A DNA stretch of 47,436 bases from positions 1 through 47,436 of the forward strand of contig CALVXQ010000001.1 in assembly GCA_944371435.1 (NCBI GenBank), written 5' to 3'. The notes beneath the pieces are model-generated. The model did no database searches and had not been told where the DNA came from. It worked only from the letters and a program-made list of their open reading frames with translations. Shown here one piece after another: positions 3,201 through 44,857 of the stretch (positions are counted from its first letter, which is position 1; every line of letters begins with the position of its first letter). The translations under genes and the position numbers were made by a program. Source of the stretch: an uncultured Bacilli bacterium (lineage in GTDB: Bacteria > Bacillota_I > Bacilli_A > RF39 > UBA660).

Positions 3201-4067
3201 TTACTTTTTATTAAATTCATCTTCATATTTTTTAAAAAACTTATAATATACCAAAACATTGGCTAATTCAGTCCAATTTTTAGTAGTCACTGGGCTTTGA
3301 TCTAGATCATATATTCTGGCACCTGTAAGTTTTAATAAAAATGGTGAATGGGTAGAAATTATAAATTGACATTTATAAAATCTAACAGAATCTTCAATAA
3401 ATTTTTTTAATTTTAATTGATTTTCTGCAGATAAACTATTTTCTGGTTCATCTAACATATAAATGCTATTTTCTTTTATTTCTCTTTCCCAAAACATAAG
3501 GGCTGATTCTCCGTTGGAACATTCTATAATGTTATTATTTCCTAAACGTTCTCTAACAAATTTAGACATCGTTTTTCTTTTTGATTCATAACTTGTCTTC
3601 AACTCGTTATAATTATCAAATGAGTTTTCATTTTTATTAAATTTATAATCTAAATATTCTTTGCTTAACTTTTCTTTTTGTCTATTAACATTAGCATTAA
3701 TTGAACGTATATCTAAAAGATAGTCAAAAACATCGTCACTTGTTATCAATTTTATTTCCGTTGGTTGTTCAAAGGACATTTCATAGGTGCAATGCTTAAC
3801 GTATAAATCAAAATATGATCCTTTATCAATTGGAGATTTTCTTGTAGCATTTAATTTTTGTGAGATAATATTTATTAACGTTGTTTTTCCCGAGCCATTA
3901 CCGCCATAAAAAATTGTGATACTATCAAAATCAATGTTTTTAAATGATCTAGTAGGAAATAAATGTAAAGGATAATTATTGTTAAATATTCTTCTTGTTT
4001 CTTCATCTCGTAAAATAGTAAATTCTTGTACTTGATCTAATAAAGCAAAATTTTTTAAATAAAGCAT
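3201..4067 (-). CDS. stand-alone ABC-type (SMC/RecF-like) AAA ATPase
   Basis: Motifs present are Walker A GGNGSGKT, a signature-like SNGES, Walker B IYMLDEPE and an H-loop STHSP. No transmembrane or partner gene lies on the same strand within the flanking AT-rich spacers. Confidence 0.8.
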   Translation of the reverse strand: MLYLKNFALLDQVQEFTILRDEETRRIFNNNYPLHLFPTRSFKNIDFDSITIFYGGNGSGKTTLINIISQKLNATRKSPIDKGSYFDLYVKHCTYEMSFEQPTEIKLITSDDVFDYLLDIRSINANVNRQKEKLSKEYLDYKFNKNENSFDNYNELKTSYESKRKTMSKFVRERLGNNNIIECSNGESALMFWEREIKENSIYMLDEPENSLSAENQLKLKKFIEDSVRFYKCQFIISTHSPFLLKLTGARIYDLDQSPVTTKNWTELANVLVYYKFFKKYEDEFNKK

Positions 4068-6295: not shown

Positions 6296-6856
6296 TTAAT
6301 CCCTTTCTTTATTATTTATATGTTTAGCATATATTTCTCTTAAATAATCTTTTCTTATTACAATGTTTTCGCCATAAGCTCCTAGTAGTTCTAAAACTTC
6401 AGTAATAAATCCCTGAATTTTTTCGTTAATCATTGCATTATCCCTTGTTTTATTCCAATAATAATATGGTGACATAGTAGTATATTTTTTGCCTTGATAA
6501 ATTTTAGAAGCTGCTACCATATCGCATATCATTTCCACACAATACTTAAAAGGAATAATTGGTGTTTTATTTAAAGCAGCATAATCATACCAGTATTCAT
6601 GGTGATGTTTATTTCTTCCTTTATGGTGTAACCAAGCTTTAGAATAACCATTTTTTTCTTTACAATTTAAAATAGGAGAATACTTGTGATTAGCATAATA
6701 TTTAATGCCTTCGATAAATTCGGTTGGACTATATTTTGATAAATCATGAACTAATCCTTGCCAAGGTATTCCTGCTTTTAAGCAAAGGATAAATACTTTA
6801 AAGCGATGACGATTTATTGTGTGTAGGTGTCCCCAGAAGTTAAAAAAGTAATTCAT
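6296..6856 (-). CDS. His-rich HD-like protein (DUF5662-like)
   Basis: The motifs WGHLHT..H, LVHDLSKY and WLHHKGRNKHHHEYW resemble the DUF5662 family, which is sometimes mis-annotated as catalase. This is recalled from memory. It is the first gene of a tightly packed three-gene minus-strand operon. Confidence 0.45.
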   Translation of the reverse strand: MNYFFNFWGHLHTINRHRFKVFILCLKAGIPWQGLVHDLSKYSPTEFIEGIKYYANHKYSPILNCKEKNGYSKAWLHHKGRNKHHHEYWYDYAALNKTPIIPFKYCVEMICDMVAASKIYQGKKYTTMSPYYYWNKTRDNAMINEKIQGFITEVLELLGAYGENIVIRKDYLREIYAKHINNKERD

Positions 6857-6963
6857 AAATGCTCACCTGATTTAATTATACCACGACTAAGTCTTATTAC
6901 CAAACAACTTCATGAGAAAAAGTGCTTTTTTTAAACTAGATATGTTAAAATTGAAATAGGGAA

Positions 6964-9900
6964 GTGATTCTTTTGGATATTGATGAAGAAAAAATCAGTA
7001 AGTTAATACGTCTTAGTGACTTTTATGCAGGAAAAAGAATAAAGAAAGAAAATTGTGTTTTAAAACTTCAAGATGCTGATACATGGCAGTTTATAGTGTA
7101 TGATGATGAAAATTTAGGCTTTGGATATTATCCCTATTATGTTAATATCAATTGGTTAGATAATATTAATTTTAAGTGTACTTGTAACTGTCGTAATTAT
7201 AAAAAATATAATTCTTGTCTCCATATAGGAGCAATTCTTTGGCATTATAAAGATACTTTGTTTAAAGATAATGATTTAGACATAAGTAATAAGTTTTTAA
7301 AAAAATATAATAATATTTTATTAACTAATAAGATAAAATTAAACTTAGAAATATATATAGAATTTAATCCTTCTCATATTAAATATTGGTTAAAGATAGG
7401 AAATGAACATTTATATACATTAAATGATTTATCTAAGTTTAAAAAATTTAAAGAAGCTTATTATTCCTCTAAAGATTTTAATTTTTCCAATAATTTTATT
7501 TATAATAGTAACAAATATTTCTTTAATAAAGATGATAAAAAATTATTAAATTATTTATTTTTAAATGATACTTTATTTTTAACTAAACAAGAATTTTTAG
7601 GATTAACAAAGTATTTAACTAATACTAAATATTATATTATTAATTATGGTTATATAAATAATATATACTATATGCTTCCTACTAAATTCAATTTATCTTT
7701 TGTTAATAATAATTATTATTTAACATTAAATGATTATCAAAATTATATTTTTATAAATAATATAGATTTTCTAATTATTTATAATAAAGATTTATATGTA
7801 ATACCGAGTAATTTAATAAGAATTATTAATGATTTTCGTAATACTTTATTAGATAAAATAGTATTTACTAATATTAATATTTTTAAAAATGGATTATATC
7901 AGAATATTGTAGATTATTTAGATGTTGATAAAAATTGCTATCATAAATTAAATAATAAACCAGTTGTTTTAATATATTTAGATTTAAAAGATAACAATAT
8001 TTTTTGTCAATTAAATTTTAAATATAATGAACGGGAATATACTTGTTTTAATCAAGATGATTTGGCTTATCGTGATTACTTTTATGAAGATAAAGTTATA
8101 AAAGAACTTTACGAATATGGTTTTTTAAATAATAAAAAGGGCTTTATTTTAAAAGATGATGATCAAATTGGGGAATTTTTAGAATTTTATTTATCTAAAT
8201 TAGTAAAGAATTATCAAGTATATACTAGTCAAAAACTAAAAAATTTAAGGGTTGTCAAAGATTTAAAACTAACTTCTTCTTTTAAAGTGGGGGACGATAA
8301 TTTAATAAATTATAGTTTTAATGTTGATAATTTAGCTATGCCAGAAATTAATGAAATATTAGAGGGTTTAAAATTAAAAAAGAAGTATTACCGGTTAAAA
8401 AATGGGGATTTAATCAAATTATTAAATAATAAAGAATTAAATAGGTTTAACGATTTATTGACAGATTTAAAAGTAAAAGAGTTAACTAATAATACGTTGG
8501 AGTTTCCTTTAACCAAAGTATTTTATCTAAACTCTTTAAAAAATAAACAGTATGATTTCTTGACATATGATTTCAGTTTTAACAACTTTTTAGATAATTT
8601 TCATAAATATCATAATATTAAATTAGATTTTAGTAGTAGGGATAATGTTCAGTTACGTGATTATCAAAAAATAGGGGTAAAGTGGTTATATACTTTATAT
8701 AAGACTCATCTAGGTGGTATTTTAGCTGATGAAATGGGCTTAGGTAAAACTTATGAAGCAATTTGTTTTATTAAAGAAGTATTGAATAATAATATTAATA
8801 GTAAAATATTAATAATTACTCCGACTTCGTTAATATATAATTGGGAAAAAGAATTTAATAAATTTGCTCCAGATAAAAAGTATTTAGTTATTTATGATAA
8901 TAAGAAAAAGAGAAAAAGTCTTTATGATTGTTATGATAGTTATAATATTTTTATTACTTCTTATGGATTAGTTAGAAATGACAATGAATTTTATCTTGAT
9001 AAAAAGTTTGCTGTCTGTTTAATTGATGAAGCCCAAACGATTAAGAATTATTATACTTTATTATCAAGTAAAATTAAAAATATAAAAGCGCAAACTAAAA
9101 TAGCCTTAACAGGAACTCCTTTAGAAAATTCTATCTTAGATTTATGGAATATATTCGATTTTATTTTACCCGGTTATTTAGGTAATTTAGAAGACTTTTT
9201 AAAAAGGTATCATAATTTAGAAAATTTAGATGAACTTAAATGCTTAATAGAGCCTTTCATTTTAAGAAGAACAAAAAAAGATGTTATAAAAGATTTACCA
9301 GATAAGATTGAAAAAAATATATATTTAGATTTATCGGATACTACTAAAGCTCTTTATTTAAAAACTTTAAATAATGCTAAGAAAGAACTAAATGCTCATA
9401 GTTCTAAGTTTGAAATTTTAGCACTTCTAGTTAGATTAAGACAAATATGTATCGATCCTCATTTAATCTATGATAATTATCCTGAGGAATCGGTAAAAAT
9501 GCTAAAGCTATTAGAGATAGTAAAAAGTTATTTAAGGGAAAACCATAAAATTCTTATTTTTAGTAGTTTTAAAACAGTTATTGATAATGTTGGTAATTTA
9601 TTTAAGGAAAATAATATTACTTTTTATAAAATAACGGGTACAGTTAAGAGTAATGAAAGAAGTAAGATGGTATCTAGTTTCAATAATGATAATACTAATT
9701 GTTTTCTTATTACTTTGAAAGCTGGGGGAGTTGGTCTTAATTTGACTAGTGCTGATATCGTTATTCATCTTGATATTTGGTGGAATCCCCAAGTTGAAAA
9801 ACAAGCTACTGACCGGGCTCATCGTCTTGGACAAAAAAAAGTAGTAACAGTTCTAAGACTTATTACTAAAGGTACAATCGAAGAAAACATTTTAAAATTA

Positions 9901-10011
9901 CAAGAACAGAAAAGTATTTTAAGCAAAGAATTAATAAATTCTACTCTTGATAATAAATTATTTTCTTTAAGTAAAGAAGATATAAAGAATTTACTTATGA
10001 CTAATTTTTAA
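6964..10011 (+). CDS. SNF2-family helicase with N-terminal SWIM zinc finger (YwqA-like)
   Basis: SWIM motif CTCNCRNYKKYNSCLH is present. SNF2 motifs are LRDYQKIGVKWL, LADEMGLGKT, DEAQTIKN, LTGTPLEN, LKAGGVGLNLT and QATDRAHRLGQ. The GTG start is uncertain by a few codons. Confidence 0.9.
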   Translation: MILLDIDEEKISKLIRLSDFYAGKRIKKENCVLKLQDADTWQFIVYDDENLGFGYYPYYVNINWLDNINFKCTCNCRNYKKYNSCLHIGAILWHYKDTLFKDNDLDISNKFLKKYNNILLTNKIKLNLEIYIEFNPSHIKYWLKIGNEHLYTLNDLSKFKKFKEAYYSSKDFNFSNNFIYNSNKYFFNKDDKKLLNYLFLNDTLFLTKQEFLGLTKYLTNTKYYIINYGYINNIYYMLPTKFNLSFVNNNYYLTLNDYQNYIFINNIDFLIIYNKDLYVIPSNLIRIINDFRNTLLDKIVFTNINIFKNGLYQNIVDYLDVDKNCYHKLNNKPVVLIYLDLKDNNIFCQLNFKYNEREYTCFNQDDLAYRDYFYEDKVIKELYEYGFLNNKKGFILKDDDQIGEFLEFYLSKLVKNYQVYTSQKLKNLRVVKDLKLTSSFKVGDDNLINYSFNVDNLAMPEINEILEGLKLKKKYYRLKNGDLIKLLNNKELNRFNDLLTDLKVKELTNNTLEFPLTKVFYLNSLKNKQYDFLTYDFSFNNFLDNFHKYHNIKLDFSSRDNVQLRDYQKIGVKWLYTLYKTHLGGILADEMGLGKTYEAICFIKEVLNNNINSKILIITPTSLIYNWEKEFNKFAPDKKYLVIYDNKKKRKSLYDCYDSYNIFITSYGLVRNDNEFYLDKKFAVCLIDEAQTIKNYYTLLSSKIKNIKAQTKIALTGTPLENSILDLWNIFDFILPGYLGNLEDFLKRYHNLENLDELKCLIEPFILRRTKKDVIKDLPDKIEKNIYLDLSDTTKALYLKTLNNAKKELNAHSSKFEILALLVRLRQICIDPHLIYDNYPEESVKMLKLLEIVKSYLRENHKILIFSSFKTVIDNVGNLFKENNITFYKITGTVKSNERSKMVSSFNNDNTNCFLITLKAGGVGLNLTSADIVIHLDIWWNPQVEKQATDRAHRLGQKKVVTVLRLITKGTIEENILKLQEQKSILSKELINSTLDNKLFSLSKEDIKNLLMTNF

Positions 10012-11288: not shown

Positions 11289-13046
11289 ATGTTTGGAAAG
11301 ATTATTAAAGTAATAGATAATAGTGTTTTTGTTCAAAATATTTCTAATCAAGTCGAAACTGGTTTAATAGGATACCATGTAAACTTTATTGAAGGAACGA
11401 GAAATATTGTTGGTGAGATAATTAATTTAGATGAAAAAGAAATTGAAATTAATTTATTAGGAGAAATAGTAGGTGATAAATTTTTAGCTGGAGCCTTGAG
11501 GAAACCTTCCACTAAATCGAGTTGTCGTATTATCACGAAGAAAGAATTGGAGTATATTTTAGGTAAGCAAAATTTCAGCAACAAAGAAAATGTCTATGTT
11601 GGTGAATCGAGTGTTTATCAAGGTTTTAAAGTAACAGCTAATCTTAATGATTTATTTGGTAGTCATTTTGCTGTTTTAGGTAATTCTGGTGCTGGTAAAT
11701 CATGTTCTGTATCCCGTATTTTACAAAATATATTTTATTATAATGATGAAGGAATGCCTGTTAATTCCCATTTTGTAATATTTGATATTTTTGGTGAATA
11801 TCGTAGTGCCTTAGAAGGAATTAATAATTTACCTAATATGGGTTTTAAAAGTTATACAACGCAAATAAGTGCGATAGACAATAATTTGATTAATATACCT
11901 GCATATTTCTTAGGTGTTGACGATTTAGCTTTGTTATTAGATGTAGACGATCCAACTCTTTTACCTGTTTTAGAAAACACTTTACGTTTGACTTATATTC
12001 TAACTAGCGAAGGAGAAGGTAATGTAGTTTATAAAAACAGGATAATTGCCAATACTTTGATGGATATTTTATCTAGTGGTCGCAATTCTAATCAGGTCCG
12101 TGATCAGATTATTGCTACTTTAACAAAGTATAATACTGTTGAGTTGAATTTAGATACTATAATTCATCAACCGGGATATGATCGAACATTGAGACAATGC
12201 TTGAATATTGATAATCAAGGTAAAATAAACGCTATTGGTTTAGTAATCGATTTTTTAGGAACATTTGCTGACTTTGATTTGAATAAGTTAGATATTACTA
12301 AAAACTTTGTTTATACTTTAGATGATTTGGCTTATGCTTTAGATTTCTCTTTGGTTAATGAAGGTATATTAAGTTCGAATATGCAGTTTGAAAAATTAAA
12401 TAAGTTAAAGGTAAGATTAGATTCAATTATAAATAGTGATTATAAAAAATTCTTTGAATTTACTGATGTTATTAGTAAAGAAGAGTATGTAAGAAAATTT
12501 TTTACTACCGAAAGAGGCAAAAATGCCCAAGTTGTTAATATGAATTTTAATTATGTCGATGATCGTATGGTTAAAACTTTAACTAAGATTTATGCAAAAT
12601 TATTTTTTGATTTTGTAACTAACCTTGATAATAGAGCATCTTTTCCTATTCATTTAATTTTAGAGGAAGCCCACCGCTATGTTAGTAGTGATGATGATAT
12701 CAAAGTATTAGGATATAATATTTTTGATCGTATTACCAAGGAAGGTCGTAAGTATGGTATTATTTTAGGCTTAATAACTCAAAGACCAAGTGAGTTATCG
12801 ACTACATCGTTATCGCAATGTGCTAATTTTATTGTATTACGTCTTTATTATCCTGATGATTTAAACATTATTAAAAGTATTACCGCTAATGTAACTGTGC
12901 AAACTTTAGAAAAGATTAAGAGTTTACGTCCCGGAATGGCTTTATGTTTTGGCAATGCTTTTAAAATTCCTTTAATTGTTGAATTGCCATTACCTGATCC
13001 AATGCCTAAATCGACATCTGTCGATATAACTACAACTTGGTATTAG
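11289..13046 (+). CDS. HerA/DUF87-type FtsK-HerA superfamily ATPase
   Basis: The N-terminal barrel-like segment is GKIIKVIDNSVFVQ...IVGEIINL. Walker A is LGNSGAGKS and Walker B is HLILEEAHRY. EGRKYGIILGLITQRPSELSTTSLSQCANFIVLRL is the hallmark COG0433 block. The ribosome-binding site is AGGTGA. Confidence 0.8.
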   Translation: MFGKIIKVIDNSVFVQNISNQVETGLIGYHVNFIEGTRNIVGEIINLDEKEIEINLLGEIVGDKFLAGALRKPSTKSSCRIITKKELEYILGKQNFSNKENVYVGESSVYQGFKVTANLNDLFGSHFAVLGNSGAGKSCSVSRILQNIFYYNDEGMPVNSHFVIFDIFGEYRSALEGINNLPNMGFKSYTTQISAIDNNLINIPAYFLGVDDLALLLDVDDPTLLPVLENTLRLTYILTSEGEGNVVYKNRIIANTLMDILSSGRNSNQVRDQIIATLTKYNTVELNLDTIIHQPGYDRTLRQCLNIDNQGKINAIGLVIDFLGTFADFDLNKLDITKNFVYTLDDLAYALDFSLVNEGILSSNMQFEKLNKLKVRLDSIINSDYKKFFEFTDVISKEEYVRKFFTTERGKNAQVVNMNFNYVDDRMVKTLTKIYAKLFFDFVTNLDNRASFPIHLILEEAHRYVSSDDDIKVLGYNIFDRITKEGRKYGIILGLITQRPSELSTTSLSQCANFIVLRLYYPDDLNIIKSITANVTVQTLEKIKSLRPGMALCFGNAFKIPLIVELPLPDPMPKSTSVDITTTWY

Positions 13047-13110
13047 ATGTAAACTGTAAAATGATTTTTAAATTTACGTTAAATAACATCTTGACATAGA
13101 TAATTTTTTC

Positions 13111-13139
13111 TTTACATTAAAACAAATGTATAATATAAT
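13111..13139 (+). promoter_or_regulatory. sigma-A-type promoter candidate for the 13167 gene
   Basis: TTTACA (13111-13116), a 17-nt spacer, then TATAAT (13134-13139). Confidence 0.45.
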
Positions 13140-13166
13140 TTACTTATATATTAATAGGTGGTTTTA

Positions 13167-13526
13167 ATGAATAGAAATAAAGTTATAATTGAAAATTGTC
13201 CAAATTTTTATAAAATTATTAATTTTGATTACTTTGAAGGAGACTACTTTACTATTAATTTAATTAATGTTTATAGAAGATTTATCTTTCAGATAGATGA
13301 TATTAATGAAGAAAATTTAGCTAAAATTAGAAAAGTTGATATGATTTTAGCTAGGTATATTGATGATTATGTTTTCCGTAAAGAGATGAAATACGAGTTG
13401 CTTCAAGTTGATATTGAACAAAAATCATCTAATCTATTGGAAAATTTAGTAAATAGTCTAATAGGTGTTTTTGAAAAGTTCGAAGAAGGACAAACGAGAA
13501 GTATTTATATAGCTTGTTGGATTTAA
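13167..13526 (+). CDS. hypothetical 119-aa protein
   Basis: The track starts at GTG 13158, but that codon lies inside the AGGTGG ribosome-binding site (13156-13161). The ATG at 13167 has ideal 5-nt spacing. I recognise no motif. Confidence 0.5.
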   Translation: MNRNKVIIENCPNFYKIINFDYFEGDYFTINLINVYRRFIFQIDDINEENLAKIRKVDMILARYIDDYVFRKEMKYELLQVDIEQKSSNLLENLVNSLIGVFEKFEEGQTRSIYIACWI

Positions 13527-13555
13527 GTGAGATAGTAAGATTTCTCACTTTTTTT
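13526..13555 (+). terminator. rho-independent terminator
   Basis: AGTGAGA, then loop tagtaagatt, then TCTCACT, followed by a T-run. Confidence 0.65.
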
Positions 13556-13635
13556 AATTTTTAAAAGGATTTTAATTTTAGATAGGTAATAAGTATATTA
13601 GAGAATTAAAATTTCTCTTAGAACAGGTGGTTTTG

Positions 13636-15360
13636 GTGAATAAATATTTTAAATACTTATTATTTATTATGCTTACTTTTTTAATTGCCAGTAATAAAAT
13701 GTTAGCAAATACGTTTACGGAGGGAGAGTATATTAAGAATGCTTACATTAATCGGATTCCTTTTGAAGGGCAAGGCTTATATAGTCAGATTCGTTTTATA
13801 GTTGATAGTGAAAATAATAAAGTTTTATATTGTTTGGAACCTTTTAGGACTTTTATTAATAATAAAGATTATGATATATATACGAATAATTATCAAGATA
13901 TACTAGATATTAGTTTAGATACTTGGTTGAAAATTGAAGCATATGCTTATTTTGGTTATCTTTATGAAGAACATACGGATCCAATATGGTATGCTGTTAG
14001 TCAATTACTTATTTGGCGAACGATAAGTCCTGATGCTGATATTTATTTTACTGATAAAATTAATGGTAAACGAACTGATAAATATGATAATTTGATTGCT
14101 GAGTTGGAATCTTTAGTTTCTTCTTATTTAGCCTTGCCTAGTTTTTCTTCTGATATAGAATTGAATTTAGGAGATAAATTAACTCTACCTTTAAATGGTT
14201 ATATTGTCTTAGAACAAGATGATGCAGTAAAAATGATTGATGATAAATTAATTATTGATGCTAATAAAAAAATTGATAAAGAATATATTTTACAAAAAGG
14301 TGGTACGGGAATAAATGAAATATATGTTTCTCGTGATTCCCAGAATATTTTTGCTTCCTTTGGTTTAAGTCCATTAACAACTAATTTACATTTGCGTGTC
14401 AATGCGGGGAATATTACAGTTAATTTTCAGAAAGAAGATGAAGTATATTCAAGCTGTCGTAGTTCTAAAGAAAACATTTTTGGTTTATATGATTACAAGG
14501 GCAATTTAATTGAAGAAATTAATGTTGATGAAATAGATAGTTTTCAAAGCAAACAACTACCTTATGGAAAATATTATTTAAAACAAATATCTAGTAGTTG
14601 TGATATCAAAAAAGATATGCATAAATATGAAGTAGAGATAAGTAAAACTAATGAAAATCCTTTTTTAACTATTGATTTAGAAGAAATAAAATGTCTTATT
14701 ACAATAAATAAGAAGTATGGTGATAATGATGTCTATTATCCCGAAAGTAATGCTAAATTTGCTATATCTGATACTGAAAAAGCATTTTATTTTACGACCA
14801 ATGAAGAAGGTATTATCGAGTTTCTTATTGGTGCCGGTGAGTATAAAATTAGTCAATTAACTGGTAAAGAAAATTATGAATTTATAAATGATTATAATAT
14901 TTTAGTTAATCAAAGTACTGATATTTTACAGTTTGATTTTAAAGATTATCCTCTTAAAGCTAATCTTGAAGTTTTAGCAGTAGATAATATGGGAAATACT
15001 TTAAAAGATGTTTTTCTTACTTTAAAATCAAGTGATGGTACCATATTAACTGGCACTACTGATGATAAAGGTATCTTTCAATTTAATAATATTATTTTAG
15101 GAAATTATATTTTGAGTTCCAGTGAAGTTTCTGGTTACGAGGTATTAGATAATATTGATTTTGTATTACAAGAAGATATGCAAATTATTTTAGAATATGA
15201 AAAAATTATTATTCCTGAAATTGTAGATGAGCCGCTAGAAGAAGACCCCGTAGTAGAGGAAATAGAAATTCCTAATACAGCAAGTAACTTAAATACTTTT
15301 TGGACTTTATTAACAAGTATTATCTTATTTTTAGGTATGTACATTAATTATGAAGATTAA
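13636..15360 (+). CDS. sortase-anchored surface adhesin: putative thioester (TED-like) N-domain plus Cna-B/SpaA-like repeats, IPNTA sorting signal
   Basis: It has a signal peptide. The motif pair YCLEP and AVSQLLIW resembles the Cys / (T)Q..(I)W pair of internal-thioester domains. The C-terminal region has prealbumin-like repeats (TDDKGIFQFNNIILGNYIL). IPNTAS is followed by a hydrophobic helix. The start is probably GTG 13636, with AGGTGG 5 nt upstream, the same layout as at 13156-13169. The track uses 13627. Confidence 0.65.
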   Translation: MNKYFKYLLFIMLTFLIASNKMLANTFTEGEYIKNAYINRIPFEGQGLYSQIRFIVDSENNKVLYCLEPFRTFINNKDYDIYTNNYQDILDISLDTWLKIEAYAYFGYLYEEHTDPIWYAVSQLLIWRTISPDADIYFTDKINGKRTDKYDNLIAELESLVSSYLALPSFSSDIELNLGDKLTLPLNGYIVLEQDDAVKMIDDKLIIDANKKIDKEYILQKGGTGINEIYVSRDSQNIFASFGLSPLTTNLHLRVNAGNITVNFQKEDEVYSSCRSSKENIFGLYDYKGNLIEEINVDEIDSFQSKQLPYGKYYLKQISSSCDIKKDMHKYEVEISKTNENPFLTIDLEEIKCLITINKKYGDNDVYYPESNAKFAISDTEKAFYFTTNEEGIIEFLIGAGEYKISQLTGKENYEFINDYNILVNQSTDILQFDFKDYPLKANLEVLAVDNMGNTLKDVFLTLKSSDGTILTGTTDDKGIFQFNNIILGNYILSSSEVSGYEVLDNIDFVLQEDMQIILEYEKIIIPEIVDEPLEEDPVVEEIEIPNTASNLNTFWTLLTSIILFLGMYINYED

Positions 15361-15805
15361 ATATATTTATCTTTTAGGAATCTTATTAACCTTGATATAT
15401 GTTTGGTTTAATTTTAAAGTTGCTGTTGAGGAAGAAGTAAAGGCTATAAGTAATAGTTGTTATGGTTATCTAAATATAGATAAAATTCATTTACGTAAAT
15501 GTCTTTATGAATTTACTGATAAATATAATTCTTTAGATGTTGGTCTTGAAGTTTATTATTTAAACCCCTTAGTAATATTAAGCCACTCTGGACCTACGCG
15601 AAATAGCTATTTTAACGATTTAGCTTCTGTAGAGATTGGGGATGTTATTGAAGTTAAATATCCCGATATCAAAAAGTATGAAGTAGTTAATATTTATCGG
15701 AAGGAAAAGGTAGATAAATTAAAACTACGTTACGATTTAATATTAGTAACTTGTGATTTAATAAATCGCAGTAAGCAAATAGTAGTAGAAGCCGTAAAAT
15801 TATAG
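15350..15805 (+). CDS. small sortase (class D-like)
   Basis: It has an N-terminal transmembrane helix, a His motif LSHSG, a catalytic-Cys motif LILVTCD, and a downstream Arg (INRSK). It overlaps the end of the adhesin gene by 11 nt. Confidence 0.7.
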   Translation: MKIKYIYLLGILLTLIYVWFNFKVAVEEEVKAISNSCYGYLNIDKIHLRKCLYEFTDKYNSLDVGLEVYYLNPLVILSHSGPTRNSYFNDLASVEIGDVIEVKYPDIKKYEVVNIYRKEKVDKLKLRYDLILVTCDLINRSKQIVVEAVKL

Positions 15806-19717: not shown

Positions 19718-21307
19718 ATGGATAATAGTACTAATAATGATGTAATAAAAGAGGAAGTATTAGATGTTACTCCTCAAACTAATACGATTAATACTGAACC
19801 CGAGAAAGAAAATAAAAAGAAGAAAAAAGAGAAAAAAGTTAAACCAACAAATCCTAATAGTTTTGCTAATTCATTTAAAGATATATTTCGTTTAGCTTTT
19901 AAAACTTTAAGATATACTTGGAAAGTTTTAACTACTAGTAATGTTGATTTACGTGATTCTAAATTAGCTAATGAAATAAAGGTTGTAAATGATAAATTAG
20001 GTATAACCCAAAAGAGAATTACAAAACTAGAAAAAGAACGAAGAGAATTACAGTTAGAATTACGCGGTGATGTAAAAGAAAATAAATATCCTAAGACTTA
20101 TATTTATAAAGTTAAAGATAAAAATGGCCGTTTTATAACAGGAAAATTCTCTGCCTTATCTAAAGCTGAAGTTAATTCATATTTGTTAAATGAAGGTTAT
20201 GAGGTATATAAAATAGAAAATAACAAGACAGTTGATTTCGTTTATGGTGATTCCTCATTTATCTCTACTAAATGGAAAAATAAAGATTTAATATTTTGGT
20301 TAACTCAGTTATCTACTTATATAAAATCAGGAATAACTTTGATGGAAGCTGTAAAAATATTAACTAATCAAATGGGTAGTAAATCTAAGAAAGCAACGAT
20401 GCAAGCTATATGTTATGAGCTTACCATGGGAAATCCTTTTTCGGTGGCTTTAGAAAAGCAGGGTAATGCCTTTCCCCCATTATTAATAAATATGTTACGT
20501 GCCGCAGAGGCAACAGGTGATTTAGAAGCAACTCTTGATGATATGGCCAATTATTATGAAGAAATTGATGCGACTAGAAAACAAATGATAAATGCCTTAA
20601 CATATCCTTGTTTAGTTTTAGTTTTTGCAATTGCTGTTATTATCTTTATTATTCTTTATGTTGTTCCCCAATTTGAAGGAATATATAGTTCTAATAGTAT
20701 GGAAATTAGCGGTGTTACTAAATTTATTTTAAATGCTAGTAAGTTCTTAAAAAGTTATATTCTTTACATGATTTTAGCCGTTATAGCCGCTTTAGCAGTC
20801 TTTGTATTATGTTATAGAAAAATAAAACCATTTCGCCGTGCTGTACAAGTTTTCTTTATGCATGTTCCGGTAATTAAGAATGTTTTAATCTATAATGAGG
20901 TTGCAGTATTTACTAAGACTTTTGCTTCGCTATTAAAAAATAATGTTTATATTACAGAAAGTATTGGTATTTTAAGTAAAATAACTAATAATGAAATTTA
21001 TAAAGAGATTATGTATCAAACAATAGATAATATTGCTCGTGGTGATAAGATATCGATGGCTTTTAAAGATCACTGGGCTGTACCTGATGTTGCTTATTAT
21101 ATGATTGTAACAGGAGAATCTACTGGAGAATTAGCAGAGATGTTAGATACAGTTAGTCATTACTTTCAAGAACAACATCGCTCGGTAGTAAATAATTTAA
21201 AAACTTTTATTGAACCCGTAACTATTATTTTGTTAGCTATTGTAGTTGGAGTTATTATAATTTCTGTATTAATGCCAATGTTTGGTGTATACGAACAAAT
21301 CATGTAA
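19718..21307 (+). CDS. type IV pilus / competence platform protein (PilC/ComGB, T2SS-F family) with about 125-aa N-terminal extension
   Basis: The PilC-type N-domain YIYKVKDKNGRFITGKFSALSKAEVNSYLLNEGYEVYKIE starts near aa 128. Two T2SSF repeats and three transmembrane helices follow. The extension is Lys-rich (KKKKKEKK) and has a coiled-coil-like stretch. Confidence 0.8.
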   Translation: MDNSTNNDVIKEEVLDVTPQTNTINTEPEKENKKKKKEKKVKPTNPNSFANSFKDIFRLAFKTLRYTWKVLTTSNVDLRDSKLANEIKVVNDKLGITQKRITKLEKERRELQLELRGDVKENKYPKTYIYKVKDKNGRFITGKFSALSKAEVNSYLLNEGYEVYKIENNKTVDFVYGDSSFISTKWKNKDLIFWLTQLSTYIKSGITLMEAVKILTNQMGSKSKKATMQAICYELTMGNPFSVALEKQGNAFPPLLINMLRAAEATGDLEATLDDMANYYEEIDATRKQMINALTYPCLVLVFAIAVIIFIILYVVPQFEGIYSSNSMEISGVTKFILNASKFLKSYILYMILAVIAALAVFVLCYRKIKPFRRAVQVFFMHVPVIKNVLIYNEVAVFTKTFASLLKNNVYITESIGILSKITNNEIYKEIMYQTIDNIARGDKISMAFKDHWAVPDVAYYMIVTGESTGELAEMLDTVSHYFQEQHRSVVNNLKTFIEPVTIILLAIVVGVIIISVLMPMFGVYEQIM

Positions 21308-21319
21308 TAGGAGGTTTAA

Positions 21320-22060
21320 ATGCTTTACATATATGTATTTATTTTAGGAAGTATTTTGACTTCCTTTTATATGGTTGTGGCTACAAGAATTCCTAATAAT
21401 GAATCAATTGTTACTCCTCGTAGCCATTGTGATAACTGTCAAAAAAAATTATGCTGGTATGAACTTATTCCTATTTTATCTTATTTTATTGTTAGAGGAC
21501 GTTGTTCAAAATGTAAGAAGAAGTTATCAATTGCTTACCCTTTATTAGAATTTTTAGGGGGCACTTTATTTTTAATCTGTCTTTTAAAGTTTAAAATAAG
21601 CTATGAGTTTTTCTTAGGTATAATTTTATCATCTCTATTCATTTTAATTAGTGTAACTGATTTTAAATATTTTATTATCTTAGATAGTGTTTTAATAGTT
21701 AGTGAAATATTTGTTATATTAGTAAATTTATTATTTAAAAGTAATTTATTATTGATTAATCTATTTAGTGGTTTATTAATGTTTTTAATAATGCTTTTAG
21801 TAAAAAAAATAGGGGATATTCTTTTTAAGAGAGAGTCTTTAGGGGGTGGAGATATTAAACTCATGTTTGTTATTGGAAGTATCTTAGGTTTAAGATTAAG
21901 TCTAGTATCAATTGTTATATCTTCCTTTATAGCTTTATTTTATGCTTTATATAGTCTTTATTTTCTAAAGAAGGAAGAAATTCCCTTTGGCCCTTTTTTA
22001 GTATTAGGAGCATTTATTACTTTAATTTTAAAAGATAACATTTTAGGTTTAATAATTTAA
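21320..22060 (+). CDS. prepilin peptidase (A24 family, PilD/ComC)
   Basis: The zinc-binding motif is CDNCQKKL...CSKCKKKL. The catalytic motifs are SVTDFKY and GGGDIKLM. It is polytopic. Confidence 0.85.
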   Translation: MLYIYVFILGSILTSFYMVVATRIPNNESIVTPRSHCDNCQKKLCWYELIPILSYFIVRGRCSKCKKKLSIAYPLLEFLGGTLFLICLLKFKISYEFFLGIILSSLFILISVTDFKYFIILDSVLIVSEIFVILVNLLFKSNLLLINLFSGLLMFLIMLLVKKIGDILFKRESLGGGDIKLMFVIGSILGLRLSLVSIVISSFIALFYALYSLYFLKKEEIPFGPFLVLGAFITLILKDNILGLII

Positions 22061-33028: not shown

Positions 33029-34174
33029 ATGAAAAAAATAACAATATTAACTGAAGATTTAGGATATGGGGGTATTGAAAAAAGTTTATGTACTTTAGCT
33101 AATTATCTTGCTTCCTTTGCTAATGTAGAAGTGGTTTCTTTATACAAGATATATGAAGAACCAGCTTTTTTACTTGATTCTAAAGTAAATATAAAATATT
33201 TAACAGAATTAAAACCTAATAAATTAGATATAACTTATAATTTAAAAAATCTTAAATTATTTTCTTTTTTCTTAGCTATTATTAATTATACAAGAATAAA
33301 AATTAAGTCTCGTAAAGCTTTACTTGATTTTATTACGATATGTGATAGCGATATTATAATAAGTACTAATCGCGTTTTAAATAAATACTTAGGTAATTAT
33401 AAAAAAGATGAAGTAAACGCTATTGCATGGGAACATTTACATCATCATGATAATATTGAATATGTTAAACTTTTAGTAAAGTCTTTAAAAAATATTAATA
33501 CATTAGTTGTTTTAAGTAAGAGTCTAGCTGATTATTATAAAAATTATTTTGCTGAAAACAATATTAATTGTTCTGTAGAATATATACCTGATATTTTAGA
33601 TGAGATACCAACTGAATATACAAATTATAAAAATAATAATTTGATTGCTGTTGGTAAGATGACTCCTCGTAAGGGATTTGAAGATTTAATAACTGTATTC
33701 AAATTAGTAGAATTAAATACTAATGATGTTTATTTGAATTTAGTTGGTGATGGAGTTTCTAAAAATAAGGTATTTAAGAAAGTAGTAGATAATAATTTAA
33801 CTCGTAAAGTACATATGTATGGTTATTTGCCTCAAAAGAGTATTAATAAATTATATAAAGATTCTAGTATATTTTGTATGACTAGTCATACTGAGGCATT
33901 TGGTATTACATTGATAGAAGCTATGAGTTATAAATTACCTGTAATTGCTTTTGATTCTGCTGAAGGAGCTAGAGAATTAATTAAAAATAATTATAATGGT
34001 TATCTAATAAAAAATCGTAATGAACATGAAATGGCTAATAAAATAGTTGAATTATTAAATAATAAAAAAGAATTAAAAAGATTGGGAGAAAATGCTTATA
34101 AAACAGCTTTGAATTATCAAAAAGATAAAGTTTTAAATCTCTGGTCTAAATTATTAGAACTAGATAAAAAGTAA
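33029..34174 (+). CDS. GT4-family glycosyltransferase
   Basis: The GT-B C-domain motif is SHTEAFGITLIEAMSYKLPVIAF.SAEGARELI (E-x7-E). Confidence 0.85.
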   Translation: MKKITILTEDLGYGGIEKSLCTLANYLASFANVEVVSLYKIYEEPAFLLDSKVNIKYLTELKPNKLDITYNLKNLKLFSFFLAIINYTRIKIKSRKALLDFITICDSDIIISTNRVLNKYLGNYKKDEVNAIAWEHLHHHDNIEYVKLLVKSLKNINTLVVLSKSLADYYKNYFAENNINCSVEYIPDILDEIPTEYTNYKNNNLIAVGKMTPRKGFEDLITVFKLVELNTNDVYLNLVGDGVSKNKVFKKVVDNNLTRKVHMYGYLPQKSINKLYKDSSIFCMTSHTEAFGITLIEAMSYKLPVIAFDSAEGARELIKNNYNGYLIKNRNEHEMANKIVELLNNKKELKRLGENAYKTALNYQKDKVLNLWSKLLELDKK

Positions 34175-34183
34175 ATTTATCAA

Positions 34184-34344
34184 CTTTGCTTACTGGACGC
34201 AAGCCTGCTTGGCTGGCAACCTGAACACTGTTTACACCAACTAGGTACTGAAAGAACTCGACTGCAATAGTGGAGTCAGTGTTGAAATCAACTGGCGACA
34301 TAACCCAATAAGAATCATTTTGGTGAGTATTAGTAAATCGATTC
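34184..34344. repeat. GC-enriched about 160-nt intergenic element, copy A (candidate structured ncRNA or modular dispersed repeat)
   Basis: With 44635-44797 it shares the plus-strand 5' end CTTTGCTTAC(T/C)GGACGC(A/C)AGCC and 3' end GGCGACATA(A/G)CCCAATAAGAA(T/A)CATTT(T)GGTGA(G/T)TATTAGTAAATCGATTC. The roughly 90-nt middle is not alignable. GC is about 43% by hand count, in very AT-rich surroundings. It lies between the convergent GT4 and ftsW genes. Confidence 0.6.
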
Positions 34345-34363
34345 ATATATCCGTTGGCAAATA

Positions 34364-35449
34364 TTAATTGTTTTTATTAACGTTTAAAATAATACCAATA
34401 CTTGCCATTGATACTAGAAGGCTTGAACCACCATATGATAAGAATGGTAGAGTTACACCTGTAACGGGTATTAAGCCAACTACGACACATAAATTTAAAA
34501 TTGCTTGAATTAAGATTTCAAATGCTAGACCAAATACTAAGTATTTAGCAAATAAGTTACTTGATTTTAAAGATATTTTAATTGAGCGGATAAAAATAGT
34601 AAATAACAAACTAGTTACAATAAGTATTCCTAGAAAGCCGAGTTCTTCTGAAATTATGGAAAAGATAAAATCAGTTTGTGGTTCTGGCAAGTAAAAATGT
34701 TTTTGAATGGAATTTCCAAGTCCCATTCCTAAAAGTCCTGATGGTCCGATTGCATACAAACTTTGAATGATTTGAAAACCACTACCTAAAGGGTCTGACC
34801 AAGGATTTATAAAAGATATTATTCTTGCTAGGCGATACGGAGCAATAATTATTAAACCAACAATACCAATAAGTCCTAAAATACCACATTTAATAAAGAA
34901 TGAAAGTTTAGCTCCCGATATAAATATTATCATAATTAAAGTGATGATTATTACCATTCCTTGGCCAAAATCTGGTTCGAGCATGATTAAACCAAAAAAT
35001 AAGAATATTATTCCTAGAATGGGAAATAAACCTTTAACTACATTTTTTACTTCCGCATCATTATTAGCTAAGTATTTAGATACAAAAATAATTAGGGCCA
35101 ATTTAGCAAATTCTGAAGGTTGCATACTAAATGAGTTAATACCAAACCAGGATCTAGAGCCATTACGAACAATCCCAATCCCGGGAATTAGCACTAGTAT
35201 TAGTAATGTTAAGGATATTAATAGTATTTTATTAGCATGTTTATAATACATCTTATAATCGATATTACTTAAAATGAACATAGTAATTAGACCTAATATA
35301 AAGAAAAGAGATTGATGTTTTACATATTTTAGTGGATCATTAAATTTATAACCAGCCCAAATATTACTTGCTGAATAAATCATTATGATTCCAAATATGG
35401 CTGTTATAATGACTGTTATTAATAAGATTTTATCTGTTTTTTTATTCAT
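34364..35449 (-). CDS. ftsW: SEDS-family peptidoglycan polymerase (FtsW/RodA/SpoVE)
   Basis: It is polytopic. The motifs are GSRSWF....S.QPSEFAKL, PEPQTDFIFS and LPFLSYGGSS. Confidence 0.9.
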   Translation of the reverse strand: MNKKTDKILLITVIITAIFGIIMIYSASNIWAGYKFNDPLKYVKHQSLFFILGLITMFILSNIDYKMYYKHANKILLISLTLLILVLIPGIGIVRNGSRSWFGINSFSMQPSEFAKLALIIFVSKYLANNDAEVKNVVKGLFPILGIIFLFFGLIMLEPDFGQGMVIIITLIMIIFISGAKLSFFIKCGILGLIGIVGLIIIAPYRLARIISFINPWSDPLGSGFQIIQSLYAIGPSGLLGMGLGNSIQKHFYLPEPQTDFIFSIISEELGFLGILIVTSLLFTIFIRSIKISLKSSNLFAKYLVFGLAFEILIQAILNLCVVVGLIPVTGVTLPFLSYGGSSLLVSMASIGIILNVNKNN

Positions 35450-43554: not shown

Positions 43555-44610
43555 ATGGTTATGTGGATAGTGTATTTGATAATTTTAATTATAATGCTTG
43601 GTTCTTTGATTTTAGTTCATGAATTAGGGCATTTTTTAGTAGCTAAAAAATGTGGTGTCCATATCTATGAATTTTCAATTGGCATGGGTCCTATTATTCA
43701 TAAACACATAGGAAAAGATAATATTCAGTATTCCATTAGGGCTTTACCTATTGGTGGGTATGTTCAAATGGCTGGAGAAGTTACTGAAGATGATGATAAT
43801 ATTAAAAAATCGGATTTTATGTGCAATAAAAAATGGTGGCAGAGAATATTAATATTAATTGCTGGCGTTACAATGAACTTTATTACTGCCTTTATCTTAT
43901 TGTTTATCGTAGCCTTAATTTGGGGTGCAAGTTCAACTGATCCAATTGTTACATCAGTTATGGAAAATTCAGCTTATGCTGAAGCCGGTGGGCTTGCTGG
44001 TGATACGATTTTAGAAGTTGATGGCAAAAGAACTAAGACATGGGATAGAGCTCAAGTATTATTAATTTTAAGTAATGATACTGGTTATTATAACATTAAA
44101 GTAAGACATGAAGATGGTACGGAAGAGACTTTAAAAGTAACTCCTAAGGATACTGTTTTGGAAGATGGTACGTCATCGAAAGTATTTGGTATATCCGTAG
44201 TTCCTACTGTTGAAAGAGGATTAATCCCTTCTTTAAAATATGCTTTTTCTAAATTTACAAGTATATATCAATCTATGTTTACGATTATTGGGGGATTATT
44301 TACGGGACGTATTTCAACTAATTCTTTATCTGGTCCCGTAGGTATTTATTCTATCGTTGAGCAATCATTTGCTTTAGGTCTATCGCAACTTTTATATTTG
44401 ACAGCTTATATTTCTATTAATTTAGGTTTTATGAATTTATTACCATTCCCAGCTTTTGATGGTGGACATATAGTATTTGTTCTTATTGAAAAATTAAGAG
44501 GAAAACCGGTTGATAAAAATATTGAAGGCTGGTTCCATGCCGTAGGTTTTATGCTTTTAATGCTACTAATGATATATATAACGATAAAAGACATTATACG
44601 ATTATTTTAA
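43555..44610 (+). CDS. rseP: RIP metalloprotease RseP/RasP (M50, site-2 protease)
   Basis: It has the HELGHF zinc motif, a central PDZ-like segment, and NLLPFPAFDGGH. ATG 43561 has better ribosome-binding-site spacing than 43555. Confidence 0.9.
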   Translation: MVMWIVYLIILIIMLGSLILVHELGHFLVAKKCGVHIYEFSIGMGPIIHKHIGKDNIQYSIRALPIGGYVQMAGEVTEDDDNIKKSDFMCNKKWWQRILILIAGVTMNFITAFILLFIVALIWGASSTDPIVTSVMENSAYAEAGGLAGDTILEVDGKRTKTWDRAQVLLILSNDTGYYNIKVRHEDGTEETLKVTPKDTVLEDGTSSKVFGISVVPTVERGLIPSLKYAFSKFTSIYQSMFTIIGGLFTGRISTNSLSGPVGIYSIVEQSFALGLSQLLYLTAYISINLGFMNLLPFPAFDGGHIVFVLIEKLRGKPVDKNIEGWFHAVGFMLLMLLMIYITIKDIIRLF

Positions 44611-44634
44611 GAACATAATAAAGTGTTCTTTTTT
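44611..44634 (+). terminator. rho-independent terminator of rseP
   Basis: GAACA, then loop taataaag, then TGTTC, followed by T6. It directly abuts copy B of the intergenic element. Confidence 0.6.
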
Positions 44635-44797
44635 CTTTGCTTACCGGACGCCAGCCATAGCTATCAATAACTCTACTGCCGTAGATGAAGCCGGCTGTTC
44701 CCTGAAGAAACTCAAACGTTGAGAAATAATAAGTATCAAGGTCATTCGGCGACATAGCCCAATAAGAAACATTTGGTGATTATTAGTAAATCGATTC
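44635..44797. repeat. GC-enriched about 160-nt intergenic element, copy B (candidate structured ncRNA or modular dispersed repeat)
   Basis: See copy A for the shared ends. Internal hairpins seen by eye (plus-strand notation) are TCTAC-tgcc-GTAGA, CTCAA-acg-TTGAG and CAGCC...GGCTG. It lies between rseP and comEA. Confidence 0.6.
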
Positions 44798-44857
44798 CAA
44801 AGATAAAAATTAAAAGGAATTAGATATTGTTTAGATAATATATATAGTGGAGGATTT

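Follow-up and report, generated by a model that had tools for sequence, protein, structure and literature searches.

Two GC-rich intergenic elements of an uncultured Bacilli bacterium as probable orphan fragments of a hypervariable surface-protein gene

A stretch of 47,436 nt from an uncultured Bacilli bacterium (contig CALVXQ010000001.1, positions 1 to 47,436; the window below) contains two GC-rich intergenic segments, copies A and B, which lie 10 kb apart and share their ends around cores that do not resemble each other. The question raised by this locus is what kind of element is conserved at both ends and so divergent in between. An earlier description made from the letters alone (the original prediction) offered either a structured non-coding RNA with a variable insertion domain or a BOX-like modular dispersed repeat. 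The explanation favoured here, which we consider probable, is that both elements are orphan, 5′-truncated fragments of the variable-region module of a DUF6273-like surface-protein gene, itself probably diversified by a diversity-generating retroelement (DGR), and that they are decaying relics. Their origin as gene fragments is held with more confidence than this statement taken as a whole.

Reading frame and protein relatives of the two elements

Both segments are present where they had been placed, and pairwise alignment resolved them into near-identical 5′ and 3′ blocks around cores that, as described, could not be aligned at the DNA level. Of the shared end modules, the 22-nt CTTTGCTTACYGGACGCMAGCC and the 21-nt GGCGACATARCCCAATAAGAA, the window contains exactly two occurrences each, and 100 shuffles contained none. 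The GC enrichment was also borne out, at 42.9% for copy A and 41.7% for copy B vs 26.5% for the window. With a DNA profile built from 13 copies, nhmmer matched only A and B, and no third copy was found in the window. The extent of ∼160 nt proved too short, as homology continues for ∼17–20 nt beyond it on the plus-strand 3′ side. This was seen from copy B of strain L009, where 13 additional nt (ATATATCCGTTGG) are identical to the flank of copy A; because of this match, the homology can be extended to ...CCGTTGGCAAA, and the copy B of the window carries a 13-nt deletion. Copy A thus occupies 34184–34361/34364 and copy B 44635–44801, the homology of the latter being 34 positions fewer than expected because of the deletion in the window allele. 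L009 (9765–9947, compared with 44797/44798 of the window) is the one strain to keep these 13 nt in copy B, all others lacking them; they could be ancestral or could have been acquired by conversion from another copy.

The minus-strand frames had been reported to share only NRFTN.HQ, and the conservation had been taken as not protein-coding. The first statement arose because open reading frames (ORFs) that do not correspond had been compared beyond a 1-nt indel; the 66-aa ORF of copy A is homologous to the 53-aa ORF (44594–44755) of copy B. The second does not hold either: with the indel base restored, A and B stay in codon register over their whole length, with 25 invariant residues. Copy B reads NRFTNNHQ, slips by one base in an A-run and then continues as NVSYWAMSPNDLDTYYFSTFEFLQGTAGFIYGSRVIDSYGWRPVSK. 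The shared minus-strand reading is (FANGY)MNRFTN.HQN.SYW.MSP, followed by ∼30 variable codons and G.RPVSK, and the variable cores of both copies translate stop-free.

For protein relatives, a profile of copy A, its ortholog P0002 (93% identical to A) and copy B was searched against a library of 1.84 billion representative proteins. It returned 24 proteins at E ≤ 1e-3, among them the full-length proteins P0013 (1.5e-7), P0016 (2.7e-6), P0018 (9.9e-6) and P0020 (2.3e-4). Many of the 24 are short ORFs of 40–104 aa that start near (FANGY)MNR[LF]T and end in GLRPV. In the long proteins P0020 (residues 588–639 of 664), P0021, P0016, P0018 and P0024 the match falls on a C-terminal module; two stretches were matched in P0021 (1055 aa). 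P0013, a distant match, contains nine DUF6273 stretches (E = 6e-37) and, at 127 bits, was the only protein to pass a Pfam gathering threshold. Pfam places the module, at scores below threshold for the family, in the last ∼47 positions of DUF6273 or Lcl_C, and in P0018 and P0024 it lies at the C-terminal positions 126–172 of the 172 of DUF6273. The best DUF6273 E-values were 0.0086 for the cassette peptides and 4.8e-4 for the C-terminal domains of full-length proteins. A search with P0020 gave more than 1800 proteins of ∼650–700 aa that have neither a Pfam annotation (precomputed tables) nor a name. This ∼660-aa family is membrane-anchored, with a C-terminal domain that is a distant relative of DUF6273, and some of its full-length members carry exact orphan types (...DELMYAGFATGYMNRLTYLYQNG.YWSMSP...GLRPVINLQSDVTISGGVGTSDNPYVVVTS and ...FANGYMNRLTYLYQNVAYWAMSP...).

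The same relationship was evident at the DNA level. Identity between orphan and full-length gene runs from TTTGCCAACGGATATATGAATCG to GGCTTGCGTCCGGTAA and ends exactly at TTTGCC; from this boundary to CGTCCGGTAA, the conserved ends agree with the corresponding part of the full-length genes. Across the boundary the full-length gene reads ...ATGTATGCAGGA on one side and TTTGCCAACGG on the other. As the DNA homology runs upstream to TTTGCC, the ATG of the 66-aa ORF is an internal residue, and its apparent 5′ untranslated region consists of codons. Judged by this homology, we count it as established that both elements are 5′-truncated fragments of the variable-region module of a surface-protein gene. 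The unit would correspond to the last ∼59 codons of a ∼660-aa gene, promoterless and cut at TTTGCC; its conserved ends would be the scaffold codons flanking a hypervariable loop (FANGYMNR.T...YW.MSP upstream and G.RPV.. downstream), and the unalignable core would be the hypervariable region of the lectin-like domain.

Structural comparison pointed to the same domain type. The AlphaFold2 model of P0020 (41-sequence alignment; predicted local distance difference test score, pLDDT, of 83.9) matched several models of phage "DUF6273 domain-containing" proteins in BFVD with probabilities of 0.97–1.00 and a best target TM-score of 0.59; a model of the lectin-like domain alone reached a pLDDT of 38. 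Whole-protein Foldseek comparison of P0020 with the PDB gave only beta-sandwich and pilin-like matches, in the N-terminal part, and a profile search of PDB sequences gave none. DUF6273 is a C-type-lectin-like DGR target with the variable region at the C-terminus of the domain (PMC10743442, PMC11792537), and the variable region lies likewise at the C-terminus of the lectin-like domain of P0020. The order of ..YW..SP.., a variable stretch and ..G.RPV is that of Pfam DUF6273 (PF19789) and Lcl_C/DUF1566 (PF07603), and the structural matches of P0020 are DUF6273 phage proteins; unlike members of these families, the element and the ∼660-aa family score below the gathering thresholds.

Two further observations concern the protein family. 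The N-terminal part of the P0020 model resembles pilin-like folds of the PDB (7ueg, probability 0.99; FimA; CfaB), and a prepilin-type (ComGC/ComGE-like) gene (L024:11636–12001) lies directly upstream of a full-length family member (12439–14448); the family may be linked to a type IV pilus or adhesin. The 82-aa protein P0004 reads MSP..EFLQDTAGFANGY and then directly MNRLTNTHQ..., so that a partial unit (MSP..EFLQDTAG) runs straight into a second unit, and the upstream FANGY of the cassette resembles the mid-core motif AGFANGY.

With this reading, the parts of each copy can be assigned. Copy A as a whole orphan cassette covers 34184–34364 on the minus strand (nhmmer envelope, E = 3.8e-47). It starts 2 nt past the stop codon of an FtsW/RodA-family gene (34364–35449, minus strand), ends 10 nt from the stop of a convergent glycosyltransferase gene (33029–34174) and translates, on the minus strand, as FANGYMNRFTNTHQNDSYWVMSPVDFNTDSTIAVEFFQYLVGVNSVQVASQAGLRPVSK. 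Its 5′ edge of homology, at 34347–34361 (minus strand), is TTTGCCAACGGATAT, the codons F-A-N-G-Y, and the same sharp boundary is found in nearly all orphans. The adjoining ATG (34344–34346) is an internal residue in full-length proteins, which read ...GYMNRLTYLYQN..YW.MSP. The conserved scaffold codons MNRFTNTHQNDSYWVMSP follow at 34293–34346 (minus strand) and had been described as a plus-strand 3′ module; the variable-region-like core, 29 codons with C as third base in 39%, lies at 34206–34292 (minus strand); and the conserved 3′ scaffold G-L-R-P-V-S-K, which had been described as the 5′ module and holds a hairpin, lies at 34184–34205 (minus strand).

Copy B as a whole, a pseudogene, covers 44635–44801 on the minus strand (nhmmer E = 7.8e-32), with the rseP terminator on one side and the comEA promoter region on the other. 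The 13-nt deletion, whose junction lies at 44797–44798 (no strand assigned), has eliminated CCAACGGATATAT and with it the first two bases (AT) of the ATG; it corresponds to columns 239–251 of the strain alignment, and L009 retains the 13 nt. At 44772–44774 (again no strand assigned) its T-run, an A-run on the coding strand, is one base shorter than that of copy A; the resulting frameshift falls between NRFTNNHQ and NVSYWAMSP. The core of 30 codons (NDLDTYYFSTFEFLQGTAGFIYGSRVIDSY) is likewise variable-region-like and has C as third base in 32%; it lies at 44657–44746 (minus strand). The conserved 3′ scaffold, at 44635–44656 (minus strand), reads G-W-R-P-V-S-K, where most other strains have L (GCAAGC). 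The GC enrichment of both copies follows from these third-position C frequencies of 39% and 32%, against 5.9% in the genes of the window, and from GC-rich scaffold codons such as TCG CCG and CGT CCG.

RNA-like and repeat-like features

The primary idea of the original prediction, that of a structured non-coding RNA whose conserved ends enclose a variable insertion domain, agrees with the intergenic position, the GC enrichment and the conserved ends, as well as with a 6-bp hairpin in the 22-nt module and a possible UUAUUGG/CCGGUAA pairing in 8/8 type-1 copies. Nothing in Rfam reached a gathering score, however, and permissive settings returned only noise (SNORA56 and the rnk leader, E = 3.7 and E = 7.3); searches for tRNA and tmRNA found none. 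Folding was no better than that of shuffles on the four strands (z = −1.58, −0.45, −1.29 and −0.56), and the RNAalifold consensus of eight copies reached −9.9 kcal/mol, to which covariation contributed −0.4, the pairs being invariant. A promoter-like or terminator-like site of the element's own was not found beyond chance. The element is also the fastest-evolving stretch of its neighborhood, and protein homology explains its whole length. Taken together, these results leave the RNA explanation with very little credence.

A closing helix of GACGC with GCGAC had been suggested around the core, but these strings are not antiparallel complements. The actual pairing is contained within the 22-nt module, as a GCTTAC-YGGAC-GCAAGC hairpin of 6 bp with a 5-nt loop (34188–34204 and 44639–44655); in copy A the arms are GCTTAC (34188–34193) and GCAAGC (34199–34204) around the loop TGGAC. 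This hairpin, GGCTTGCGTCCGGTAAGC, has 6 bp and 5 nt in type-1 copies and 4 bp in type-2 copies and full-length genes. The type-1 form arises from a type-1-specific ATCAAT to AGCAAA change. The copy B allele of the window, GCCAGC, disrupts one pair of the hairpin, which is restored by the GCAAGC of 9/11 strains. Upstream of the variable core, UUAUUGGGY could pair with GCGUCCGGUAA downstream of it (alignment A9, columns 54–62/170–178); this pairing is kept in 8/8 type-1 copies with all pairs invariant and, if real, would join both ends of the variable region.

The alternative description as a modular dispersed repeat was partly upheld. The elements do belong to a family of many copies, in which the ends are conserved and the cores vary, at numerous intergenic sites and in tandem pairs of related genomes; what failed is the notion of the unit, which is an in-frame gene fragment. 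Resemblance to BOX, RUP and ERIC repeats is accordingly limited to the short, multi-copy, intergenic and modular look, as those differ in that the present unit is in-frame with a gene throughout and has neither conserved terminal inverted repeats nor a supported RNA structure. For a mobile repeat of the miniature inverted-repeat transposable element or BOX type, the ends CTTTGCCAACGG and CCGGTAAGCAAAG could be cited, which form an imperfect 10/13 inverted repeat in type-1 copies. This inverted repeat is missing from type-2 copies (...CCGGTAATCAAT), its arms are the codons FANG and PVSK, and there were no target-site duplications at 10 junctions. Genuine small (55–66 aa) protein genes would be the other possibility of this kind, as two intact 55-aa ORFs with an ATG and an immediate TAA occur in a related contig (L018). 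Against this, a Shine-Dalgarno sequence like those of the neighboring genes is lacking, the ATG is an internal residue with homology going on for 15 nt upstream into FANGY, 55 aa would cover no more than roughly the final third of the lectin-like domain, and copy B is disrupted in all strains. A mobile repeat or small protein genes are thus hardly to be expected here.

Hypervariability and the adenine signature

A profile search of a 5.8-billion-protein collection identified 135 relatives, nearly all of them different singletons on contigs of 0.5–5 kb. Such short contigs are typical of assembly-breaking sequence, and the cassettes break metagenome assemblies, most relatives being found on contigs of this size. 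One distant relative is labeled "Mycoplasma sp. CAG:956".

The variation is confined to certain codons and is of a particular kind. In 35 equal-length variants there are 15 hypervariable columns, and 99.8% of the 525 residues in these belong to the set encoded by NNY codons; Lys, Glu, Gln and Met account for 0/525, despite the 24–27% GC of the lineage. Alternations among relatives include E/G/A at a GAG codon and T/A/S at ACY codons. Across five DNA copies 26 codons vary, with changes at position 1 in 19, at position 2 in 17 and at position 3 in 9 (8/9/3 for the hypervariable codons alone), and codons 1–11 and 50–56 are invariant including their adenines. A spectrum of this type is expected when a reverse transcriptase that is promiscuous at adenines copies AAY template codons (PMC8144416, PMC3240598). 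Based on the mutation spectrum and the domain type, we infer a DGR reverse transcriptase as the probable mutator; in the lineage, DGR adenine mutagenesis would have diversified the hypervariable region by turning AAY template codons into NNY. The adenine-templated spectrum is seen in the relatives and not in the window's own copies, which would have dropped out of diversification and now be decaying.

Several observations weigh against this reading. Of 45 variable DNA columns, 14 contain no A, and so at least two template variants or ordinary divergence are required; these columns mostly divide two subtypes (SG.SSA vs VGASAA). Mutations of the scaffold adenines (TAT, ATG, CAG) are very rare, and this holds for the orphans too. 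DGR targets free of selection would not be expected to behave in this way, a hint that the orphan sequences passed through selection, for example by exchange with an expressed gene. Neither a reverse transcriptase nor a template repeat was found among the window ORFs (Pfam) or within 10 kb of two full-length genes; a scan of all 384 kb of window and related contigs for the reverse transcriptase motif ([LIV]GxxxSQ ... YxDD for the DGR clade) gave 0 matches, which leaves room for a remote enzyme elsewhere in the genome. The gene tables of L002, L008, L024, L028–L032, L035 and L036 likewise contain no Pfam reverse transcriptase. Between copies A and B, differences fall on every codon position (21/15/20 of 31 codons), and hence these two are not siblings of one template. 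The element's own Pfam matches are sub-threshold (Lcl_C E = 0.03–0.06; DUF6273 E = 0.009), with copy A scoring 14–14.9 bits against Lcl_C where the cut-off is 34.9. Finally, the common sharp 5′ boundary of the orphans, together with their ragged 3′ ends, does not follow from the favored explanation.

Candidates for the template itself were considered and rejected. Copies A and B have AAY at only 3/15 and 1/15 of the hypervariable columns, respectively, and so neither is a template repeat; an orphan in L036 is like a variable repeat, not a template, when compared with the neighboring gene.

Window copies, dispersed cassettes and known systems

The state of the window's copies was assessed by comparison between strains. 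Copy A is orthologous in at least 6 metagenome contigs and copy B in 10 contigs, and more than 10 assemblies agree at 99.66% over the 20 kb around them. Against this background, copy A shows, over its 161 nt, 6 substitutions against an expectation of 0.53 (Poisson P = 2e-5), as well as a 3-nt indel that keeps the frame; copy B has 8 segregating sites and a 13-nt indel vs 1 site in ∼160 nt of flank. Neither copy is hypervariable between strains, and both outpace their surroundings in patchy changes. In copy A the patches are TTT ACT AAT..GAT to TTA ACC TAT..GGT and GGT GTA to GGC AAT GCA; such clustered changes move it towards MNRLTY-type sequence, which suggests tracts of gene conversion by other copies. 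The frameshift of copy B is seen in 11/11 strains, and the window allele of this copy also lacks the start codon. At scaffold positions the window copies carry non-family residues, W being replaced by Q or R, and copy A reads through into flanking DNA. Both start at the TTTGCC truncation point after unrelated DNA and not inside an intact target gene. In view of the frameshift and the missing start codon of copy B, the window copies are most likely decaying relics that are no longer diversified. The family, its hypervariability pattern, the strain-level stability and the disruptions are observed directly; that the window copies are functionless is inferred.

Orphan cassettes are not peculiar to the window. 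L018 has two tandem intact copies, each a 55-aa ORF with an ATG and then an immediate TAA, and L028 has two tandem copies with differences almost all at codon positions 1–2. In L029 the copy follows a sigma-factor gene, and in L030/L031 an Impact_N gene. In L036 an inverted orphan lies 650 nt upstream of a full-length gene, and in L024 a longer, 145-aa C-terminal fragment with conserved flanks and a collapsed core lies at a distance of 2 kb from a full-length paralogue. The related organisms L035, L036 and L024 were the only ones in which full-length genes were seen. At 9/10 junctions the orphan starts at TTTGCC, and the 3′ ends are ragged. Exact-pattern scans returned one chance match among genome contigs, in a high-GC genome (L001), three chance matches among metagenome contigs (L021–23) and none among viral contigs. 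One precedent for a non-coding variable repeat is available, from Pelodictyon (PMC3521204); no precedent was found in the literature consulted for a dispersed and tandem family of orphan tips with one common truncation point, which is apparently undescribed.

Two pairs of contigs share only part of the surroundings of a cassette. L030 and L032 have near-identical downstream flanks (>99% over 300 nt), different cores and unrelated upstream flanks; L019 and L020 likewise share a near-identical downstream flank and differ in the variable region, with unrelated upstream flanks. The cassettes may be rearrangement breakpoints or copy-number-variable arrays in these pairs. A DDE_Tnp_1 transposase (L030:10386–11192), 3 kb from the orphan, is the only mobile-element gene near any copy. 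A seeming serine codon-family switch in L019/L020 (GTA TCA AAA vs GTA AGC AAA) is simply GTAATCAAA minus one base, and orthology of the insertion sites of copy A and L028 was rejected: both lie downstream of FtsW-family genes, but the two genes, at only 30% identity, are paralogues.

Such pairs bear on an alternative that we think unlikely, in which the orphans are functional silent cassettes, an archive of variable regions that exchange with an expressed gene through their conserved ends, by homologous recombination or gene conversion, on top of DGR-type diversification. In addition to the shared downstream flanks with different variable regions and upstream flanks (L030 vs L032; L019 vs L020), it is favored by conserved arms of 51–54 nt and ∼22 nt around the variable core, patchy differences between near-identical strains, the 13 nt identical to the copy A flank in copy B of L009, scaffold adenines kept in orphans as though selected in a protein, and the occurrence of tandem arrays. 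The window copies are disrupted, though, and their non-family scaffold residues (W to Q or R) fit decay; the frameshift of copy B is present in 11/11 strains; a donor-recipient partner would need a gene in the same genome, and full-length genes were seen only in related organisms; and the patches could equally reflect conversion among junk copies.

Silent pseudogene cassettes are familiar from antigenic variation, as in Mycoplasma genitalium MgPar, Borrelia vls, Neisseria pilS and Anaplasma msp2. From general knowledge of these systems, the present cassettes are similar in being truncated, promoterless and derived from the variable part of a surface-protein gene, with conserved flanks around a variable core, a dispersed or tandem arrangement and signs of patchwise exchange. 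They differ in the adenine-mutagenesis signature of their core diversity, which is not only accumulated divergence, and in being very short (∼180 nt).

Several features are shared with DGR variable repeats in target proteins of C-type-lectin fold or DUF6273 type, such as the Mtd of Bordetella phage BPP-1 and the Faecalibacterium prophage targets. In both cases the variable module forms the C-terminal end of a lectin-like (here DUF6273-like) domain; hypervariable codons, ∼115 nt of them, stand between conserved scaffold codons; and relatives show an NNY-only residue spectrum with third bases mostly kept. The GC-rich 3′ end with its small hairpin may recall the cis elements at the end of such repeats, a GC-rich initiation-of-mutagenic-homing element with a hairpin or cruciform. 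Unlike such repeats, the window copies lie outside a target gene, carry disruptions and show no hypervariability between strains; orphans are many, dispersed or tandem, with a common 5′ truncation point; and no reverse transcriptase, accessory gene or template repeat was found in window and related contigs. In phage BPP-1, sequence upstream of the variable region is dispensable for DGR targeting (PMC3240598), and a gene fragment could for that reason remain a DGR target.

The way in which the fragments reached their sites may be a separate matter. Complementary DNA made by a DGR reverse transcriptase from template or variable-region RNA could have inserted ectopically into AT-rich intergenic sites without homology, the DGR then acting now and again as a retrotransposon. 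This idea is about origin, and the gene-fragment explanation can accommodate it. It would fit the uniform, sharp TTTGCC 5′ boundary at unrelated loci in two sequence subtypes, the unit length of ∼165–190 nt that is typical of template and variable repeats, and the unrelated intergenic insertion sites, often right after a stop codon. However, primer-fixed synthesis predicts fixed 3′ and ragged 5′ ends (sense), the opposite of what is seen; target-site duplications and poly-A-like tails are lacking; no reverse transcriptase was found in the 384-kb motif scan; and the tandem duplication in L028 includes spacer DNA, such that ordinary duplication also spreads copies. We consider an ectopic origin improbable.

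A broader departure from the relic explanation would be that the orphans are not junk. DGR-type hypermutation would then be combined with promoterless variable-region cassettes dispersed over the genome, which could still be targets of mutagenic homing and could also act as gene-conversion partners of an expressed pilus- or adhesin-like gene, in a two-tier system; alternatively, the cassettes could be footprints of ectopic DGR retrotransposition. We give this a small though appreciable chance. A two-tier archive and mutator, or ectopic DGR retrotransposition, if true, would be a new mode of DGR biology, and orphans that are still mutagenized or exchanged would bear on DGR target recognition and diversity storage. 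Under the favored explanation of decaying relics, what looks in an AT-rich genome like a GC-rich "element" with two conserved ends can be an orphan variable-region fragment and not an RNA, and frame-aware comparison decides between the two. The ∼660-aa family (more than 1800 members, no Pfam annotation) has a lectin-like tip that looks like a major unrecognized target of adenine-type hypermutation, and its hosts are low-GC, gut-type, partly spore-forming bacteria known only from metagenomes.

Other loci of the window include surface-appendage genes, which thus share it with the orphan cassettes: a SpaA-type pilin with a sortase (13627–15805) and a T2SS-F-like platform protein with a prepilin peptidase (19718–22060). 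At lower coordinates are an AAA_15/AAA_21 (AbiEii-like) ATPase (3201–4067), a DUF5662 protein beside a 1015-aa SNF2-family helicase (6296–10011) and a HerA/DUF87 helicase (11289–13046); these genes may form a defense-type cluster.

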